Positions 27,577-36,745 of a stretch of 60,165 bases of DNA are shown piece after piece. How positions within the stretch are numbered: the stretch's first letter is position 1; every line of letters begins with the position of its first letter. The notes below the pieces were generated by a model that was given only the letters and a program-made list of their open reading frames with translations, made no database searches and was not told the origin of the DNA. The position numbers were made by a program, and so were the translations under genes. This DNA is from Escherichia phage vB_Eco_SLUR76, in the sequence record LR025195.1; one strand, written 5' to 3'.

Positions 27577-27603
27577 AAAGGGGCGTTTGCCCCTTTTCTC
27601 TTC
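27577..27603. terminator. Bidirectional terminator at the convergence of + and - transcription units
   Basis: Hairpin aaaggggc-gttt-gccccttt with A/T runs on both sides. Confidence 0.7.
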
Positions 27604-27807
27604 TTAGAATATACGAAAGAAAGCACCGTATGGGTATACGCCAAAAGTATTGAAAACAGGCGGTGCAAAAGCATTCACAAACACAGGAGTTGGCGCTACT
27701 GGTTGAAAAGTTTTGCAATTACACGCTGCTTGAGCCAATTGCCCCTGAAGTATACCTGCTTGTGTTGCAGGACTGCCTAGACAGCAACGGTTAGTATTAC
27801 CACACAT
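27604..27807 (-). CDS. Small Cys-rich protein
   Basis: RBS aaggagg 7 nt before ATG; 8 Cys in 67 aa. Confidence 0.5.
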   Translation of the reverse strand: MCGNTNRCCLGSPATQAGILQGQLAQAACNCKTFQPVAPTPVFVNAFAPPVFNTFGVYPYGAFFRIF

Positions 27808-27818
27808 AGTAGACCTCC

Positions 27819-28103
27819 TTAAAGGTCGCTTTCGTTATCCTGCTTGGAACTGGGCTTTTCAGCTTCAATCATCCCAAGTACCGCAATAACTTTAACAGCA
27901 ATACGCTGAGCTAGACTGATTTGCTGCTGGGTTAATTTTCCGGTCGAAACCACAGTCATTAACCCGCTTAAGTTTCCAAGAGACTTAAAATCGCTGAATG
28001 CAGATTTCATAATTGTAAGTTGATCATGACCTTCGTCTGCTATAACATGAGCACGAATAGAAAGTCCTTCAACGACTTTATCAATACCTTCATTCTTCGT
28101 CAT
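27819..28103 (-). CDS. Hypothetical protein
   Basis: RBS aggtga before ATG. Confidence 0.5.
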   Translation of the reverse strand: MTKNEGIDKVVEGLSIRAHVIADEGHDQLTIMKSAFSDFKSLGNLSGLMTVVSTGKLTQQQISLAQRIAVKVIAVLGMIEAEKPSSKQDNESDL

Positions 28104-28620
28104 TTGGTTTCACCTTCTGCTCCGGTTTCTGAGGGACCGTTTGAGCGGTCTTTGGTTGCAGCACTTCCTGATCAATCATGGGTGGCCACGGGCTAATATG
28201 CTCGCGTGCTTCTACAGGCTGCTCCGGTTGCATACCAAGAAACTTACTAATAAAATCCCCTGCGAAGTCTGTGCCATCGCTGACGTAAACATGCATACGA
28301 TCAAGATCTGATTGACTAATGGAGTTTGGAGCAATTGTAATCTTGAACTGGTGGAAGCCGACATACATCACATTCACGGGTCGTTCGATAGTGCCCGGCG
28401 TAGGCGGTATCACTCCCATAATCCAACAGTAATGAACCCTTCCATCACCCATAGGTTCACATCCAGCATTAAGCCAGCTCACCTTCTGGTGTGGGAACAT
28501 GGTAGTTGAATCGGTAGCGTCCCGACGTAACGTCCAATCAACACCGCCCATGTTGATGGAGTTTTTCGGTTTCATCCCGTTGAACTGGGTTACGCCCATT
28601 CCTGCGTTTACGTTTTGCAT
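28090..28620 (-). CDS. Hypothetical protein
   Basis: RBS aggaag before ATG. Confidence 0.55.
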   Translation of the reverse strand: MQNVNAGMGVTQFNGMKPKNSINMGGVDWTLRRDATDSTTMFPHQKVSWLNAGCEPMGDGRVHYCWIMGVIPPTPGTIERPVNVMYVGFHQFKITIAPNSISQSDLDRMHVYVSDGTDFAGDFISKFLGMQPEQPVEAREHISPWPPMIDQEVLQPKTAQTVPQKPEQKVKPNDEE

Positions 28621-28635
28621 GTCGGCTTCCTATTC

Positions 28636-29004
28636 TTACATATCTTTCATTTTTTGAAGAGCACAAGTACAAGCTGCGGCAAGATCGGTCAACTCTTTCA
28701 TGATCCCTGCGCGGTCGCCTTCTTTCTTACACTCCATTAATTCGCGGTATTCCATTTCAACAATGGACATCATACCGCCGGGCTTGTCGTGGTACGCCGC
28801 CCACGTATGCGGAGGTTCTTCCATCCGGTCAAGAACATTTGACATAGCTGCCATATGTTCATGATCTCGAGCATAAGAGTGAGCATGTTTATATTCCTCT
28901 TTCTCATGTTCATGGTGGTGCTCACCTACGCTAATGCGAGGTAAAGCAACCTTAGGCAATTTGACCCGTGGCATTCCCATCGTTGCAATTTTAATGTGGC
29001 TCAT
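28636..29004 (-). CDS. His-rich hypothetical protein (possible MazG-like or metal-binding)
   Basis: RBS agaggtag; N-terminal HHHEHEKEEYKHAH. Confidence 0.5.
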   Translation of the reverse strand: MSHIKIATMGMPRVKLPKVALPRISVGEHHHEHEKEEYKHAHSYARDHEHMAAMSNVLDRMEEPPHTWAAYHDKPGGMMSIVEMEYRELMECKKEGDRAGIMKELTDLAAACTCALQKMKDM

Positions 29005-29075
29005 GATACTACCTCTGTTAAAAGCGCCCCAAGCGGAGGAGCGAAAGGCGCTTTAGTTTAACCACACTTCAGCGA

Positions 29076-29783
29076 TTAGCAGCAGCCAGTCGGAGGAGTT
29101 GGAGGAGTTGGCAGTTTAAAGTTAACTAACTGCTCAACCTGATTGATTTTACAGGTAAGGCCAGCCGTCTGCGCCAACTGAGAGTTTGCAAAGCGAGCTT
29201 CCTGCAACTGGGACTTCAGGTCACAGATCAGAACAGCTTGCGCTTGTGCGTGCTGATCGCGCAGGAGAGCACGAGTAGCTTCTGCTTGACGCTCGATGTT
29301 TAGGTTGGTTTCGCAGCAACACTTCTGAGCTTCTAACTGAGCCTGGAAAGAACGGGTAATGTTAGCCGCTTCGTTGCTACACAGAGCCGCGAGCACTTGG
29401 CTGGTGCCGCCCTGGATCTGCGTGTTCAGACCAGCAAAGCCCTGAACGGAAGCGAGTAGGTTTTGAGTGTTCTGCTGAGTAATACCGTTATAGGTAGAAG
29501 CAGCGGAGCGCTCAACAGTCAGGTTAGTACCGTTCTGCCCCTGAATGGTCTGAAGAGTACCGTTGTTGATAGCTTGCAGAATTGCGTTGGTGTCAACAGA
29601 AGCTTGCACTTCCACCGGGCCAGCGAAGTTACCGCGACCACCCCAACCACCATTGCCGCCCCAACCATTACCGATCCAGGAACCAATTAAGCCACCGATC
29701 GCGCCACCGATACCAGCCGCACCAGCTTCACCACCGAAACCGTCGCCACCGAGATTAGTAGGTAAAAGAGTCATGTCAGACAT
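29076..29783 (-). CDS. Glycine-zipper / coiled-coil protein ending in Cys-Cys
   Basis: RBS ggagat; GGAIGGLIGSWIGNGWGGNGGWGG then Q/N-rich coiled coil and terminal GCC. Confidence 0.5.
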   Translation of the reverse strand: MSDMTLLPTNLGGDGFGGEAGAAGIGGAIGGLIGSWIGNGWGGNGGWGGRGNFAGPVEVQASVDTNAILQAINNGTLQTIQGQNGTNLTVERSAASTYNGITQQNTQNLLASVQGFAGLNTQIQGGTSQVLAALCSNEAANITRSFQAQLEAQKCCCETNLNIERQAEATRALLRDQHAQAQAVLICDLKSQLQEARFANSQLAQTAGLTCKINQVEQLVNFKLPTPPTPPTGCC

Positions 29784-29955
29784 AGGAAAATCTCCATATA
29801 TGGATTTGTTAAGCGGATGTAACCAACTGGTTACGAAGTAAAGCATACCCCTTAACATGCTTTTTACAATGATCCAAATGTAAAGATTTTGTAAATTAGG
29901 ATTGACAGTCAATAAAAAGCGCGCCCCGAAGACGCGCTGAGGAAGTTAGATGTGG

Positions 29956-32856
29956 TTATGGTAGTGATTCTTTATTAACAAGCGTCGCAACTAACTTTTT
30001 GAGTTCCTCAACTTCAGTTTCAAGTTTTGTAATGCGGTCATCTGCTTCACGACAAACCTGAACCAGAAGACCGGTTACCGCGGAGTAGTCGACGCTAAGG
30101 TAACGTTTACCAAAATCCAAGGTTATATCATTACCTTCTACGTCCTGACCATCCATATATTCATGCTTTGTGAAACTGCTAACAGCTTCAGGTAGTGCTT
30201 CCATAACTTCCTGAGCAATTACACCAGCATAAGGTAGACCGTTCTCCTTAAGTGTATATGTATAACCATTCATTTTCCGAATTGCTTCAGTAGCTGAACT
30301 TATTACCTGTATGTTATCTTTTAAGTCTCTATCGGATGACTGATTAACTGTAACACAGTTAACAGCACCATTTACTTGAAGTTGTAGGCTGTTATCCGGA
30401 TTCTGTTGACCATAAAAAATCCAAGTATCCGATGCATCCGTGTCGGGGTTTTTTACTTTACATTCAATAACTGTCGGTCTATCGGAGTTACCCCAAGTAT
30501 ACAGTTCAATATTCTTAGCAGAATTTCCGCCAGTTAATATGCGCGTAATTCTACCACCATTAACCACAGATAAATTATTTGTTAATAATCTATTGTTAAA
30601 TGTATTTGGCTGTGTCCATATATTTTCAATATCCAAAGCTGCTAACTGATGCCAGGGTGAATCAGTTTTCGATGCTTGTGGATTATCGGAGAGTAGGAAA
30701 CGGTAGTACATTTTACCATCCGCACCAATCCACGCTTGACCAATCCTTGATGTAGCATAGCATGATTGGAACCCTGCCCCATATGTAGGAACCCATGAAG
30801 GATTTGTTGATCCATCGCTAATAAAGCAATCGCGACCGTCCAGAGGTGTATTGGCTCCAAAAGATGAAGTAAGTAGCTTCAACCATTCGCCATTTGTACT
30901 AGCTTCGATTGTTCTAATAAAAGCATTGTTCCTACGACCTGCTATTTGAAATGCGTAGTTTCCGCTAAAACCTACATGTACACCACCATAAACAACATTT
31001 GTAGAATGTTCAGGACCGTTAACGCCTCCAGCAATCCCGTAGAATTTATTCACGGTATTGATTTGACCGTTCCAATCGGATCCAGTTGCTGATAACAATC
31101 CATTTGGGGAACTAAATGTTCCATCCAGATTAAAGTTAAAAAATTGATGTCTGGCAGCAGATGACATATCACGCACAACAATCTGTCCATTGCTATCTCC
31201 TGCGCGAAGTTCTGTCTGATCCAATGTTATATTTTTTTCAGCATTTGTTCTTCTGCTTATAAAAGATCTACCTTCAGTAGAATCGCTATACCCTATAAAT
31301 CCCTGTGTTGCTTGTATTTTTCCAAGTAATGTGAAACTAGGAATTGACGCAATAAAAGAATCACCTGTAGACAGATTATTTGTTAGTGCAAAGTTTTGTG
31401 AACTTCCTTGTCTAAATGGAGAATTGCTATAGAATCCACTACCACCACCTTCAAAGTTAAGGATGTTTGTAACGTTATTCTCCGTGTCACCTTCAGTTGG
31501 AGCGGACACTCCAAACTTAAAACGAACACCATTAGTACCTAAAACATAGTCTTCAATTGGTACTATGACATTTGCCTTGTAACCAACTTGAATCCTAATT
31601 GGAAAAGCTTTTTTGTGGATATAAAAAGCTATATGATTGCTATAATCCTTTTTAGAACCTTTGACGCAAAGTATTCCAACTTCTTTTGGATCATAAGTTG
31701 CTAGATAACCAAAAGCAGCATCTTTCAAATCTGACCAACCGCCACAACGAATGTATCCAAAGAACGAACTATTATTCATCGGATCGTTTGCTGGTGCACT
31801 TTTAGTGACAATATCAACAGGGCATAGCATGTTCCCATACCCGTTCATATTACCTGTATAGATTATAATAGGATAATATTTTTCATCCTCTGACCCTTCC
31901 GGGGCGTTGATGGTTATGATGTTTGACAAACCACCTTCCGGGATTTGGAGATTGGTCTTAGCGTCTGCTATTGTTAAAGCTCCAGTCCCACCTCTATTGA
32001 CAGGTAAAGGAAGATATCTACTACCAGAGACGTCAAATGCGCCCCAACTTATATTATTTTCAACTATAATTTTTGCATTACGATTTGGAGAGTATAAAGC
32101 TGTCTCTGTGCTTGCTTGCGCTAATCTGTCTACTTGACTATAAAGAACACCTTTCCACCATACAGTTCCAGTTTGAGCGGTCCATTTGTAGCTATAAACA
32201 GTTCCTGTCACATCACCTATAAACAAGCCAATAAAGCCCGGGCTTCCGTCCATAGGGGAAATAAAGCCACCTAGAACGTTATCACTATTAGCAATGCCCG
32301 GATACCCGACGGTTGAACTTCTAAGTATTCTTAAAAAACCCAGGAAGCTAGAAGGATTAACAGTAATATCTGCGACATGTCTTGCGCTGCTAGTTAAGCC
32401 GATAGATGCCTTCATGCCATTAGCGGTGTCTTCTGCCTTTTTAGCAGCAGCTTCTGCTTTAACTCTCTCCTGCTCGGATTTAGTAGCAGAAGTAGATGAA
32501 GCGTTCTTAGCTGTTTCGGCTTGTGAAACTAAATCTCTAACCTGTGCAATAACTTCCGGAGTTAATTCTTCCGGGGCCCATGTGGTTAAATAGTTATTCA
32601 GCGTACCTTCTTTACTGTCCGCGTAAATAGCAATTTCACCAGCTTTATAAGGCTCGCTACCTTGAGGCCCAATAATAACCTTGTAATAGCCTGTCTGGAC
32701 GGTGATGTCATAAGTTCCGGTTGCACTTGTTTTAAAGATAGCTTCGCTGCTGGATAATACGGTAAGACTGTTTCCTTTAGCTAAAAGCGCAACTGTAGCG
32801 TTGATAATTGGTTTGCCCAGTCCATCACGCAAAGTACCATATAAACGAGTTGCCAT
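29956..32856 (-). CDS. Long tail fiber protein with C-terminal S74-type intramolecular chaperone domain
   Basis: 966 aa; C-terminus SDRDLKDNI...GVIAQEV...LSVDYSAVTGLL matches the autoproteolytic chaperone domain of tail fibers; RBS gggaga. Confidence 0.8.
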   Translation of the reverse strand: MATRLYGTLRDGLGKPIINATVALLAKGNSLTVLSSSEAIFKTSATGTYDITVQTGYYKVIIGPQGSEPYKAGEIAIYADSKEGTLNNYLTTWAPEELTPEVIAQVRDLVSQAETAKNASSTSATKSEQERVKAEAAAKKAEDTANGMKASIGLTSSARHVADITVNPSSFLGFLRILRSSTVGYPGIANSDNVLGGFISPMDGSPGFIGLFIGDVTGTVYSYKWTAQTGTVWWKGVLYSQVDRLAQASTETALYSPNRNAKIIVENNISWGAFDVSGSRYLPLPVNRGGTGALTIADAKTNLQIPEGGLSNIITINAPEGSEDEKYYPIIIYTGNMNGYGNMLCPVDIVTKSAPANDPMNNSSFFGYIRCGGWSDLKDAAFGYLATYDPKEVGILCVKGSKKDYSNHIAFYIHKKAFPIRIQVGYKANVIVPIEDYVLGTNGVRFKFGVSAPTEGDTENNVTNILNFEGGGSGFYSNSPFRQGSSQNFALTNNLSTGDSFIASIPSFTLLGKIQATQGFIGYSDSTEGRSFISRRTNAEKNITLDQTELRAGDSNGQIVVRDMSSAARHQFFNFNLDGTFSSPNGLLSATGSDWNGQINTVNKFYGIAGGVNGPEHSTNVVYGGVHVGFSGNYAFQIAGRRNNAFIRTIEASTNGEWLKLLTSSFGANTPLDGRDCFISDGSTNPSWVPTYGAGFQSCYATSRIGQAWIGADGKMYYRFLLSDNPQASKTDSPWHQLAALDIENIWTQPNTFNNRLLTNNLSVVNGGRITRILTGGNSAKNIELYTWGNSDRPTVIECKVKNPDTDASDTWIFYGQQNPDNSLQLQVNGAVNCVTVNQSSDRDLKDNIQVISSATEAIRKMNGYTYTLKENGLPYAGVIAQEVMEALPEAVSSFTKHEYMDGQDVEGNDITLDFGKRYLSVDYSAVTGLLVQVCREADDRITKLETEVEELKKLVATLVNKESLP

Positions 32857-32938
32857 AATATCTCCCACATTTATTTGACTTACTCAACACAACAAGTATA
32901 TTAAAATTGAACCTTGACAACAACACAAAGGAGTCCCG

Positions 32939-33172
32939 ATGAAACACGCTCTAATTATGCTGGCATTATGTTTGTCCCTTACTGCATGTGGTAATGGTTT
33001 AAATACTGGTAAACCTAATTCCGGTGTCGTTCCAAAACCTTTGGATCGCGATGGTAACGGTTCTTTAATTTATGATACCGAAAAGCTTCCAATGACTGGG
33101 CAATGGTGTCATGAAATTGATCACGAATACCGACGAATTGGCTCACCTTCAAACTGTGTGATTGATTATTGA
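32939..33172 (+). CDS. Small outer-membrane lipoprotein, Llp/Cor-like superinfection-exclusion candidate
   Basis: Signal peptide with lipobox LTAC; 77 aa; opposite strand, wedged between receptor-binding tail genes. Confidence 0.55.
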   Translation: MKHALIMLALCLSLTACGNGLNTGKPNSGVVPKPLDRDGNGSLIYDTEKLPMTGQWCHEIDHEYRRIGSPSNCVIDY

Positions 33173-33174
33173 AA

Positions 33175-33203
33175 ATTAACCCCTCGTTTGAGGGGTTAAT
33201 TAT
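33175..33203. terminator. Bidirectional terminator
   Basis: Hairpin aattaacccctc-gttt-gaggggttaatt. Confidence 0.7.
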
Positions 33204-33206
33204 TTA

Positions 33207-36200
33207 TTACGACCAACTACCAGTTCCGCGAGTCATTAATATTACAGATGGGCGCAAGTAGCTCCCATAGACGTTCGTATACTCCTCCTTAACGCTTATT
33301 GTTACGCTCGACGCTGTCTTTCCTTTCACTGCTAAAGGTATGGTTACATCCATGGCAGGACCATTAGCAGCTCGCTCAATCCTCCTTGTAATTGATGTCC
33401 CCCCTATGTTAGCAGTCACAATTATACGACTTGCCTGATTTGATGTATATGCGGTTAAACTATAACTTAATAGCAACACAAAGTCTTTAGATAATGTTGA
33501 ACCAGATGAGTCTTTGAAAGTTTTTGTCCAGGTTCTTGAACTTGTAGTTTGTGTGTTTGGTATTGCAGACTCAGCAATGACACACATATTCGCAACATCA
33601 CCCACAAAACTGGTGGCTTCCACAGTACCCTTGAATTTACCGCTTGTTGCGTTCACTGTACCTGTGAAAGATCCGTTGCTAGCGTATACAGTACCTCTTA
33701 TCGTTACGTTGTTAAACTGAGCGCTACCATTCTTGTTAATCATCCAACCCGCGCTATTGTTAGCGTAGTTTGTTGACTGAATTTGGTTTGCTATCTTAGC
33801 ACTGTCGATAGTACCATTTTCAATAAATGTAGCCTTCATAAACACTTGACCGTTTTTAACGGCAAATGCTAATTCAGCGGCGCTGTTTGTCGGGTTATAG
33901 ATAGCAAAGTTGTTAGCACTTACCATAAAGTAAGACTGAACAGCGCCACCGGAACCCTCCATACCTAGCTGGATACCAGCGACGTATTTTTGTCCTTTAC
34001 TATCAACCTGTACCTTAGCGCCCCATTGAGCGTTAACATTACCTTCCAGATCTACAACTGCTTTACTTGTCTCCTGCACGGTCGCGCTAACCGTTTCAAT
34101 AGTCTTACCTTGAGTGTCAATCAACTTACCCTGTGCGTCGATAAGCTGTCCTTGTTCGTTAATGGTAACGCCCTGATCCTGAACAACACCGTCCAAAGTA
34201 ATAACGCTTTGTTGAACATTGCTAACGCTTTGACTTAAACGCTGTTCAGTTTCTACTACAGTTTGGCTAAGCTGAGTAACTCCATCTTTAACACCTGTGA
34301 TTTCAGTAGTGAGCTCTTTATAAGTCTCCGTCTTCTTGAATTCAGAATCAATTTGTGGCATCAAATCTGTAGCTGTTGTAAAGCACAATGCAGCTACTTC
34401 TACAAATGCAGATGATCCGAAAGCGTTAATGGTGCGGACATACCAGTAATAAGTGTGGTCATTCTTCAAACCTTCCGAAGTCCAGGTTGTGCCCATGCCT
34501 TTACGAGTTGCTTCACGCTCAACAACGTCTGTAGACACAGATGACAATCTTGTTTCACCGGAAGTCCAGAAATCATACTGCGTGCTAACGTTTGCAAGGT
34601 CCGCAGATTTAGGGATTAGGCTTATAGCAAAGTAACCCTGTTGTACTTCAATAGATGTTGGTGGCGGCGGAGCCTGAATATTAAATTCCAGATACGCTTC
34701 AGGCGATATTGCCCCGCTATAAGCTACCGCTTGAACATGCGCTGTATACGCGCCCCGCAGCAACCCAGTAACGCGAACGTTTTGGCCAGGGACTTGTGCG
34801 GTCCAAACCGTTGTACCTCCCTGTCGCACGGCTACGCGGTTATATGCTACCTGCCCAATATTGCTCCACGTTAAAACACCCTGCACAACATCGCTAATCT
34901 GCAATACCTGATACTGAAGGTTTTGCGGTTGAGCAATAGCACCAGACGGAAGGTCTACCAGATCCGGGCGCTCCATTGGCTTACCAATAGCGTCGTCCCA
35001 CATTTCCAGGAAGTCTTGACGAAGGACAAGATTAATCCCACCTTTAGGATCGAATGACCATTTAGTAACGCGCATCTCAACGTTTTTCATTCCGATATTT
35101 GAAATGGTTACGTTGACATACATGCCCGGGCGGAATTTATACCCCTTCATGTTACACGGCACTTCAATTGTTCGACCAACACGCTTACGACGTAAAATAA
35201 TATTAGCAAGACGTTGAGCTTGATATTCACTTGTAACAAAGCGGAAATCCATGTCTTGCGTTATTTCACCGCCATCTTTTTCCACCCATTCCTTAACCAC
35301 AACTGGAGGAAAATCTGCTTCAGCGTATGTTTGCTTCGGGTCGACGAATGTACCTGTAATGGTATTGGTACGCTCTTTATAAGACGTCTCAGGGATTATT
35401 TTGATATCCCCAGCAATGCAGCTTTCATCCAAAGTCATGGTGGCTGGGCCGTAATAAGCACCAACTAACAGACCATGCTTGCCGCCAATATAGGTTAGTT
35501 CCCCACCGCAAGCTTCAAGCATAGCATCAAGAATCTTGGCAGGTGCTTCGTCCACTTCAAACTCACCGTTAATGCGATAGCGTCTTTCCGTAGTGCTATC
35601 TGCGTTAGTAACAAACTCATCGCAGATGTTAGCAGCTTCCTTGAATTGGTCCCAGTTAATATTCTCGTCCTTTCGCTTTAAATACGTGCGGAAATAATCA
35701 AGAATAACAAGAGCAGCGTTATCGCTAAAGACAGTTTGACCGGAACGTGGGTCATAAACTCTACGTCCCTTTTTCAACACCTTGACGTTTGGCAAACCGG
35801 ATGGGAATTTTTCAGCATCAAACTTTAAGCTTAAACGTAGCCATGCAATACCCTTGCCAATCATATCCTCCTTCCAGGAAGGACAATGTTTTAACATGAA
35901 TGGGTCAACAGTCTGACGGTCGTTATGAAACTCCCAAGTAGCGTTTTCACCAAACCAATCAATTCCGTCATCACCCAACCAAATCGTTTCAATACCTTCC
36001 AATTTATGACTGGCAAGAACGACAACAAGATGCATCCATTCACCTTCATCTTGATCTCCAGCTTCTTCCTCCGCAAATGCTAATAGTCCGGACGCTACAG
36101 TCGTGCCATATACAACAGAACGTGACGCTGTAGCTGCACGCAGAACCTGTTTACGCTCTTGCTGCCCCTTGTAAGCATCAAAGTTCATATTTGGTGCCTT

Positions 36201-36329
36201 AGTTAAAAGAGCACCTGCCGCGGTTGCAGCAATACCGATAACGAGAGCGGTAGTAGCCGAAATAATACTAGCCGCAGCAGCAGCCGACGCACCTAAAGCT
36301 ATTGCTGCTCCAATTATTGCTGGTGGCAT
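33207..36329 (-). CDS. Tail tip / central fiber protein (lambda J-like host specificity protein)
   Basis: 1040 aa; position after the tape measure and minor tail genes; RBS ggaggg before ATG (the track start is an upstream TTG). Confidence 0.75.
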   Translation of the reverse strand: MPPAIIGAAIALGASAAAAASIISATTALVIGIAATAAGALLTKAPNMNFDAYKGQQERKQVLRAATASRSVVYGTTVASGLLAFAEEEAGDQDEGEWMHLVVVLASHKLEGIETIWLGDDGIDWFGENATWEFHNDRQTVDPFMLKHCPSWKEDMIGKGIAWLRLSLKFDAEKFPSGLPNVKVLKKGRRVYDPRSGQTVFSDNAALVILDYFRTYLKRKDENINWDQFKEAANICDEFVTNADSTTERRYRINGEFEVDEAPAKILDAMLEACGGELTYIGGKHGLLVGAYYGPATMTLDESCIAGDIKIIPETSYKERTNTITGTFVDPKQTYAEADFPPVVVKEWVEKDGGEITQDMDFRFVTSEYQAQRLANIILRRKRVGRTIEVPCNMKGYKFRPGMYVNVTISNIGMKNVEMRVTKWSFDPKGGINLVLRQDFLEMWDDAIGKPMERPDLVDLPSGAIAQPQNLQYQVLQISDVVQGVLTWSNIGQVAYNRVAVRQGGTTVWTAQVPGQNVRVTGLLRGAYTAHVQAVAYSGAISPEAYLEFNIQAPPPPTSIEVQQGYFAISLIPKSADLANVSTQYDFWTSGETRLSSVSTDVVEREATRKGMGTTWTSEGLKNDHTYYWYVRTINAFGSSAFVEVAALCFTTATDLMPQIDSEFKKTETYKELTTEITGVKDGVTQLSQTVVETEQRLSQSVSNVQQSVITLDGVVQDQGVTINEQGQLIDAQGKLIDTQGKTIETVSATVQETSKAVVDLEGNVNAQWGAKVQVDSKGQKYVAGIQLGMEGSGGAVQSYFMVSANNFAIYNPTNSAAELAFAVKNGQVFMKATFIENGTIDSAKIANQIQSTNYANNSAGWMINKNGSAQFNNVTIRGTVYASNGSFTGTVNATSGKFKGTVEATSFVGDVANMCVIAESAIPNTQTTSSRTWTKTFKDSSGSTLSKDFVLLLSYSLTAYTSNQASRIIVTANIGGTSITRRIERAANGPAMDVTIPLAVKGKTASSVTISVKEEYTNVYGSYLRPSVILMTRGTGSWS

Positions 36330-36745
36330 TAGACCCTCCAAATATCCGTAATTTTGATCTTATTAAGCGGGAATGTTTCCACACCGTTCGGACCCATAGC
36401 CCATACATATCCAGTCCATAATATGCCAGCAGTTAAGCCCAATGCTCCCTCAAATGTAACCACATCGCCTCTTTGCGCATAGTTCTTGTCAACTCGTTCG
36501 CTGAGGTAAGTATCCAATAACAATGGAAGGTAAGCGGTTCCAACTCTTTCAATAGTGAACTTTTTACTTCCAAGCTCGGTACTATATTTTCCAGCAACTT
36601 GTTCGTAGATATTTGTGCCGTATTGCGCATCAACACATTTAGCCGCGAAGGTGCAGCAATCATTTTCACCCCAAGAAAAAGGAGTCGATGACAACTCCTT
36701 TACTGTGGTTAATAAACGTGTCTGCCAGCCCGGCAACTTACTCAT
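36329..36745 (-). CDS. Minor tail / tail assembly protein
   Basis: Start ATG overlaps the upstream stop (ATGAGTAA); tail-module position. Confidence 0.5.
   Translation of the reverse strand: MSKLPGWQTRLLTTVKELSSTPFSWGENDCCTFAAKCVDAQYGTNIYEQVAGKYSTELGSKKFTIERVGTAYLPLLLDTYLSERVDKNYAQRGDVVTFEGALGLTAGILWTGYVWAMGPNGVETFPLNKIKITDIWRV

Follow-up and report, generated by a model that had tools for sequence, protein, structure and literature searches.

The tail region of Escherichia phage vB_Eco_SLUR76 (LR025195.1; the window, by which the whole analysed stretch of 60,165 nucleotides is meant) raises the question of what a single small plus-strand gene does between a tail fibre gene and a J-like gene which are both read from the minus strand. 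In the original prediction this gene was regarded as a superinfection exclusion candidate of the Llp/Cor kind. The present analysis retains the exclusion role and refines the assignment: the protein is placed in the family of the lipoprotein Lpp010, which is associated with the receptor LamB, instead of the Llp/Cor family, and we consider it likely that this predicted outer-membrane lipoprotein makes cells refractory to LamB phages, most probably because it binds LamB on the periplasmic side.

A stretch of 900 bases around the gene is 100% identical to vB_Eco_SLUR26 (LR025198.1, 60165 bp; offset of 2 nt relative to the window) and 88–97% identical to some twenty other Seuratvirus genomes (Queuovirinae). 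In LR025198.1 the gene is annotated as SLURMMXVI_30050, "hypothetical protein", and is the sole plus-strand CDS between record positions 27606 and 58772, so the GenBank CDS layout agrees with the lone gene in a minus-strand block of about 30 kb that had been proposed (31 kb in the record). Its placement between a tail fibre gene and a J-like gene is likewise borne out by Pfam and PHROGs matches of both neighbours. The Seurat record already annotates a "putative lipoprotein" and a [quoted passage not shown], and the Seuratvirus comparative-genomics paper makes no mention of the lipoprotein gene. The features of the locus are as follows.

29956-32868, minus strand: side (lateral) tail fibre gene, 970 aa, with PF08400 at the N-terminus and Peptidase_S74 at the C-terminus, divergent from the lipoprotein gene.
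32875-32902, plus strand: promoter-like site TTGACT-16-TATATT from a consensus scan, 10 of 12 matches, about 37 nt 5' of the ATG.
32928-32933, plus strand: Shine-Dalgarno sequence AAGGAG, 5 nt 5' of the start codon; a ribosome-binding site is annotated at the same position in Seurat.
32939-33172, plus strand: lipoprotein ORF with ATG start, 77 aa, MKHALIMLALCLSLTAC followed by GNGLNTGKPNSGVVPKPLDRDGNGSLIYDTEKLPMTGQWCHEIDHEYRRIGSPSNCVIDY.
32939-32986, plus strand: predicted signal peptide, residues 1-16, ending with the lipobox residues L-T-A before Cys17.
32987-33172, plus strand: predicted mature lipoprotein Cys17-Tyr77, 61 residues and the stop codon, from the family alignment (phrog_12984).
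33174-33206, bidirectional: intrinsic terminator, a GC-rich hairpin with A and T runs between the convergent stop codons.
33207-36329, minus strand: J-like central tail fibre or tail tip protein, 1040 aa from the annotated ATG (PF09327, PF24489, phrog_31).
33207-33659, minus strand: C-terminal extension of J, the last ~150 codons, presumed LamB-binding domain, from alignments of J proteins.

In the list of ORFs the J gene begins with TTG at 36341, while GenBank and Seurat use ATG at 36329 (MPPAII...); the fibre ORF is listed from GTG at 32868 versus an annotated ATG at 32856. The side tail fibre gene belongs to the context and has no part in the exclusion function. Its start lies about 70–82 nt from the lipoprotein ATG in divergent orientation, and the 5' part of the lipoprotein gene contains a weak minus-strand promoter-like site (32965-32994). 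Should transcription be stopped efficiently at the terminator behind J, the fibre gene would require a separate promoter here, so that both genes may be controlled from one divergent region. Downstream of the fibre gene the window holds small same-strand ORFs (27600-32868), and the match to phage CSP1 ends about 260 nt into the fibre gene.

The precursor begins with MKHALIMLALCLSLTA before C, with positive charge first, then a hydrophobic core and the canonical lipobox L14-T15-A16-C17; the predicted 77-aa precursor with signal peptide and lipobox LTAC is accordingly upheld by the ORF translation and by the family alignment. A search of all six frames of the 60-kb window with a signal-peptide-plus-lipobox pattern was passed by this ORF alone, and dN/dS relative to Seurat, SeppeHuegi, 9g, and KurtStettler was 0.08–0.11 for the whole gene and 0.02–0.13 for the mature part. 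Since the pattern match is unique in the window, dN/dS is low, and the cysteine residues are invariant in the family, the ORF is more than a chance occurrence, and it is confirmed that the gene is real and under strong purifying selection. The residue at position +2 after the lipobox cysteine is Gly, and by the Lol sorting rule of E. coli, under which Gly at +2 leads to the outer membrane, the window lipoprotein would be located there.

The signals around the gene differ in weight. The promoter-like site is a consensus match only, and such sites are no commoner in the region than in shuffled sequence; its hexamers are identical in Seurat, SeppeHuegi, and KurtStettler, and 9g deviates in the -35 hexamer only. 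At the other end a hairpin at 33174-33201 with a 12-bp stem (-18.2 kcal/mol with flanks), followed by a T-rich run, occupies the 34-nt gap from the lipoprotein stop codon to the J stop codon (33207). The hairpin terminator that had been predicted therefore exists; the statement that the gene is "flanked by" its own bidirectional terminator is a slight overstatement, because the terminator stands on the 3' side only and is common to J. With a host-type promoter and a terminator of its own, the gene may be expressed independently of the late tail operon which it interrupts.

In the PHROGs collection the window lipoprotein falls into phrog_12984, "lipoprotein" (E = 1.3e-56), together with Lpp010 (E = 1e-26), while Pfam, NCBIfam, and PADLOC offered no family beyond sub-threshold matches to the signal peptide. 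Sequence and profile searches of the PDB gave nothing relevant, and the chains of Llp (8A60, 7QJF) and Rtp45 (9RPS), which are in that library, were unmatched. The family is small, with 28 clusters at 90% identity among 5.8 billion proteins; an exhaustive profile search of 1.84 billion representatives gave three true family clusters at 50% identity and no distant relatives informative on function. In an alignment of 25 members C17, P26-V30 (PNSGV), C57, and C73 are invariant, the core reads GQWC...R.G..NC, and the lipobox is present in 24 of the 25. The mature window protein thus consists of a tether rich in Gly and Asn, the PNSGV motif, and a region with Cys57 and Cys73, which probably form a disulfide. 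AlphaFold2 with the family alignment reached a mean pLDDT of 57 (full-length protein) and 54 (mature part), a confidence too low for fold matches to mean anything.

One family variant of 72 aa (P0026; L015 3293-3511 and L016 2212-2430) has no canonical lipobox (MKKLIAVVAIALCCTAFA...) and a shortened C-terminal motif RRPGNNC; it lies among small genes of unknown function with no J gene nearby and may be a secreted, non-lipidated offshoot. Nine matches to profile positions 32-62 (E = 2.8e-7) were found in P0030, a repetitive 4467-aa adhesin with CshA and SdrD-B repeats; they cover a short Asp/Gly-rich stretch and probably do not reflect homology, and the adhesin was not accepted as a family member. 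The DRDGNGSL...DTEK stretch of the lipoprotein may resemble the Asp/Gly-rich loops of adhesin repeats.

Among 50,697 phage genomes searched by tblastn 43 records carry the lipoprotein. Outside Seuratvirus the identity to the window protein is 90% in Nonagvirus 9g, 73–75% in Dhillonvirus EP23 and its relatives, 77% in a Salmonella phage, 55% in an Enterobacter phage of the Drexlerviridae, and 53–54% (E about 2e-21) in the temperate phages mEp010, mEp013, mEp044, mEp554, and MagusPhagus. The key member of the last set is mEp010_116 (gp116, Lpp010), which is 54% identical over 95% of the query (pairwise blastp E = 4e-31) and was described by Negrete-Mendez et al. in 2025 as the "type-C" lipoprotein of mEpimmI coliphages (PMC11893012). 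In their spot assays plasmid-expressed Lpp010 excluded mEp010, mEp044, mEp554, and lambda, and not mEp013, all five phages being LamB-dependent, and Lpp010 was called by its authors the first non-lambdoid lipoprotein reported to exclude lambda (PMC11893012). As Lpp010 fails on mEp013, it does not simply close LamB to all phages. Exclusion factors had already been placed at this J-adjacent locus (PMC8594841, PMC11990801). Thus the kind of gene, the locus, and exclusion by a homologue are already published, and the window copy extends the published work; conservation of the Lpp010 function in a protein of 54% identity is likely but not certain. The identity to a tested excluder supports the earlier view of a receptor-directed exclusion lipoprotein beside a receptor-binding gene.

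Which receptor is concerned follows from the carriers. All nine carriers with an experimentally determined receptor use LamB, namely Bas21–24, CSP1, and mEp010/013/044/554. According to table S5 of the BASEL study LamB is the terminal receptor of Bas21–Bas24 (GottfriedDienst, KurtStettler, WildeMaa, and SeppeHuegi) (PMC8594841), all four of which have the lipoprotein with 83–97% identity, and the carrier CSP1 is also a LamB user (PMC13577005). The other 21 small siphoviruses of BASEL (Bas01–20 and Bas25), which depend on LptD, FhuA, BtuB, TolC, or YncD, are all absent from the 43 tblastn records; in particular, none of the FhuA-dependent ones has the lipoprotein gene. The J protein of the LamB-dependent SeppeHuegi/Bas24 is 98.7% identical to that of the window. 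Since phages whose J proteins are 98–99% identical and whose lipoproteins are 95–97% identical to those of the window are LamB-dependent, the receptor of the window phage, judged from these alignments, is almost certainly LamB and not FhuA, and the FhuA-type receptor implied by the original prediction is given up, as close relatives by both J and lipoprotein depend on LamB.

An instructive case is the LptD-dependent VogelGryff/Bas25, a member of the same genus with the same tail genes. Its J protein has 879 aa and is followed by an opposite-strand ORF of 333 aa, where according to the BASEL authors the receptor-binding genes are located; no lipoprotein ORF, Rtp45-like ones included, was found at this locus (L012 4790-5920), and VogelGryff may have no exclusion factor there. 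The J proteins of carriers align with the window J to the last residues, while those of VogelGryff, Rtp, and T1 stop at about residue 885–900. From these end points it follows that in carriers a J C-terminal extension of ~150 residues replaces the separate receptor-binding protein, and published statements hold that the distal J domains specify LamB.

The same comparisons bear on a lysis role, in which the protein would be an outer-membrane spanin subunit or another lysis component. In favour of this, no second ORF with a lipobox turned up in the window, the endolysin region of the Seurat record is annotated with an endolysin and no spanin, and the nearby tail fibre gene and the genes downstream of it are implicated in lysis suppression in CSP1: there the fibre gene and the next two genes give turbid plaques, and one of the products binds holin (PMC13577005). 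However, the lipoprotein gene is solitary between tail genes with the endolysin region elsewhere, and no inner-membrane spanin partner adjoins or embeds it. Its absence from VogelGryff argues in the same direction, as a core lysis gene would not vanish with the receptor module; the CSP1C deletion which abolishes lysis suppression leaves the lipoprotein gene intact, and the homologue Lpp010 gives exclusion, not lysis. Altogether a lysis component is barely credible here.

Returning to exclusion by a LamB-directed lipoprotein, the link to J is also visible in the J C-terminal domain, whose 33 full-length tblastn matches all belong to lipoprotein carriers, except one in a weakly matching, unannotated Enterobacter phage. 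The two neighbours change at very different rates. Between 9g and the window the identity is 40% over the final 200 J residues and 90% for the lipoproteins; for KurtStettler the values are 46% for the J tip (partial alignment) and 83%; and in CSP1 and 9g the tblastn matches cover the first 25 of the last 150 J residues only. Conservation is much stronger in the lipoprotein than in the neighbouring J tip. An excluder that stays constant while the binding domain beside it changes fast is consistent with action on a conserved face of the host protein, and also with the cross-exclusion of lambda by Lpp010. In KS_S4 and SHIN8, where the lipoproteins are 99–100% identical to that of the window, the C-terminal part of J (window 33210-33660) has an insertion of ~111 nt, the match spanning 1012 nt versus a 901-nt query, and the last 150 J residues show 79% identity. 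That the J tip and the LamB-binding end of lambda J are homologous was considered and not adopted: the BLAST alignment, at 26–28% identity, ends at lambda residue 1037 of 1132, and because it stops short of the end of lambda J the two LamB-binding domains are not demonstrably the same.

The layout of the locus is kept across distant phages. At nine phage loci of five lineages (Seuratvirus, Nonagvirus 9g, Dhillonvirus EP23, Drexlerviridae AS5, and the temperate mEpimmI phages) the lipoprotein gene is convergent with J, with a gap of 29–34 nt that is filled by a hairpin; the hairpins vary in sequence and keep their form in 9 of 9 loci, and the gap element is annotated as a terminator or stem-loop in mEp010 and 9g. 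A Salmonella contig and a prophage of E. coli Nissle have the same convergent layout. In this lambdoid prophage of Nissle 1917 (NZ_CP148105.1 2214452-2214685) the lipoprotein is 94% identical and convergent with a J-like gene of 1308 aa. The 88% nucleotide identity to the window covers exactly 32798-33206, that is, the fibre 5' end, promoter, gene, and terminator, and ends at the J stop codon, beyond which the J proteins are only 33% identical. As the homology is limited to the cassette and halts at the J stop codon, the cassette appears to travel as a separate unit between temperate prophages and virulent Queuovirinae, uncoupled from the binding domain of J. Homologues, presumably in prophages, are found in the chromosomes of about 50 of 5426 complete E. 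coli genomes, always as a single copy and always annotated as "hypothetical protein"; about 13 of them are mEp010-like and about 37, including that of Nissle, are more distant alleles.

With its own promoter-like site and terminator, and with homology boundaries that coincide with the cassette, the gene would be classed as a moron. Such an architecture also suits an envelope lipoprotein of the lambda Bor kind that serves host fitness by altering surface properties or stress resistance, and it may be added that lambda has another moron, lom, at the equivalent position after J and that the roughly 50 chromosomal copies in E. coli point the same way. A host-fitness gene is nevertheless highly improbable: it would have little value in strictly virulent phages, where purifying selection on this gene is strong, the gene is found only beside LamB-type J proteins, its homologue Lpp010 gives an exclusion phenotype, and no similarity to any Pfam, NCBIfam, or PADLOC family was found.

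The function proposed for the window lipoprotein can be described as a sequence of steps. The precursor would be exported by the Sec pathway, lipidated at Cys17, and cleaved by signal peptidase II, and the mature lipoprotein would be sorted to the outer membrane, where it would make the cell refractory to LamB-using phages. As Llp does with FhuA and Rtp45 with LptD, it would most likely bind its receptor, LamB, from the periplasm. For a virulent phage two benefits may be expected: the infected cell would be spared wasteful secondary infection, and the progeny would not be lost on LamB in debris after lysis. The saving of progeny from irreversible loss on debris is the documented benefit of T5 Llp.

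LamB has no plug domain, and it is not known to pass a conformational change across the membrane. Because of the missing plug the mechanisms of Llp and Rtp45 may not carry over, and exclusion may instead take place after adsorption, with LamB still bound and tail-tip penetration or the passage of DNA across the envelope blocked. In that case no plug is required for a periplasmic ligand to signal outwards, and the Lpp010 assays do not separate adsorption from a later step. A further argument comes from E. coli Nissle, which was reported in 2018 to bind and inactivate lambda through LamB and to be neither lysed nor lysogenised, so that binding would occur without infection; an unidentified prophage factor that blocks DNA entry was invoked by the authors (PMC5987069). 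If the 94% identical, J-convergent copy of Nissle is expressed, its presence together with lambda binding argues against a simple adsorption block. This argument hinges on the copy being expressed and lying in the implicated prophage, and a block after adsorption would leave virulent progeny open to irreversible loss on debris; moreover, the receptor-binding protein no longer binds in the presence of either Llp or Rtp45, the two lipoproteins with solved structures (PMC9586334, PMC12685063). A block after adsorption is therefore rather unlikely, and periplasmic binding of LamB is preferred. A wider reading, in which the family disables a plug-less trimeric porin, LamB, in a way unlike Llp and Rtp45 (for instance by letting phages bind and stopping their DNA, or by obstructing the LamB channel at its periplasmic opening), the cassette moves alone, and the Nissle copy is the factor behind lambda refractoriness, is offered tentatively and is, as a whole, somewhat doubtful.

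In summary, a probable function and a probable receptor (LamB) can be proposed for a gene that some 40 phage genomes and about 1% of the complete E. coli genomes list as "hypothetical protein" or "lipoprotein". In small siphoviruses three lipoprotein families unrelated in sequence occupy one locus, namely Cor/Llp (FhuA), Rtp45 (LptD), and phrog_12984 (LamB), and since each is tied to another receptor, the presence of the gene helps to predict the receptor of a phage from its genome. For phage cocktails this means that cells infected by one LamB phage, or lysogens with the cassette, may resist other LamB phages.

Among the known systems Lpp010 is the closest, with full-length homology, a lipobox, the PNSGV(I)P motif, the GQWC...RRIGSPSNC core with two invariant cysteines, a gene convergent with J and sharing a terminator with it, and LamB-dependent host phages. 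It differs in that its carrier is temperate, while the window phage is strictly virulent and has 7-deazaguanine-modified DNA (Queuovirinae); the N-terminal tether of the window protein is shorter and rich in Gly and Asn, and in mEp010 a further small ORF lies upstream and the distance to the fibre gene is 177 nt, against 70–83 nt.

The proteins named in the original prediction stand further away. T5 Llp and the Cor proteins of T1, phi80, and N15 are similar in build, with precursors of 75–77 residues, a lipobox, two cysteines, and a mature part of ~60 residues, and their genes too lie next to the receptor-binding gene on the opposite strand and have expression signals of their own; the proteins disable the outer-membrane receptor of the phage itself. 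In T1 the receptor-binding genes downstream of J converge with cor, with a terminator annotated at the junction, while T5 llp adjoins oad/pb5 in divergent orientation. The mirroring of T5 llp and T1 cor therefore holds for position and does not extend to homology: blastp and hhalign alignments with Llp and Cor were confined to residues 1-23, the signal peptide. T5 Llp and T1 Cor match phrog_1119 (E = 1e-19 and 3e-30), to which the window lipoprotein gave no match at E <= 0.01, and with its place in phrog_12984 membership in the Llp/Cor family falls. The target of Llp and Cor is also of another type, the plugged TonB-dependent transporter FhuA and not the porin LamB.

Rtp45 is likewise a small exclusion lipoprotein of the periplasm, and in small siphoviruses its gene lies downstream of J within the receptor-binding locus. 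The protein binds the periplasmic rim of LptD and distorts its extracellular loops, as seen in structure 9RPS with LptDE (PMC12685063). Its target is LptD, and its gene precedes a separate same-strand receptor-binding gene, whereas the window J carries the binding domain itself. Rtp45 matches PF24052, "Phage lipoprotein family" (1.3e-37), and phrog_4281, and the window lipoprotein has no PF24052 match in Pfam. Kinship with Rtp45 was tried and rejected, as an hhalign probability of 84% was driven by the signal peptide and fell to 1.3% with mature-region profiles. All these lipoproteins share precursors of 75–82 residues, a lipobox, two cysteines, and a gene beside the receptor-binding gene, and on these comparisons the window lipoprotein, Llp/Cor, and Rtp45 are best regarded as analogues.
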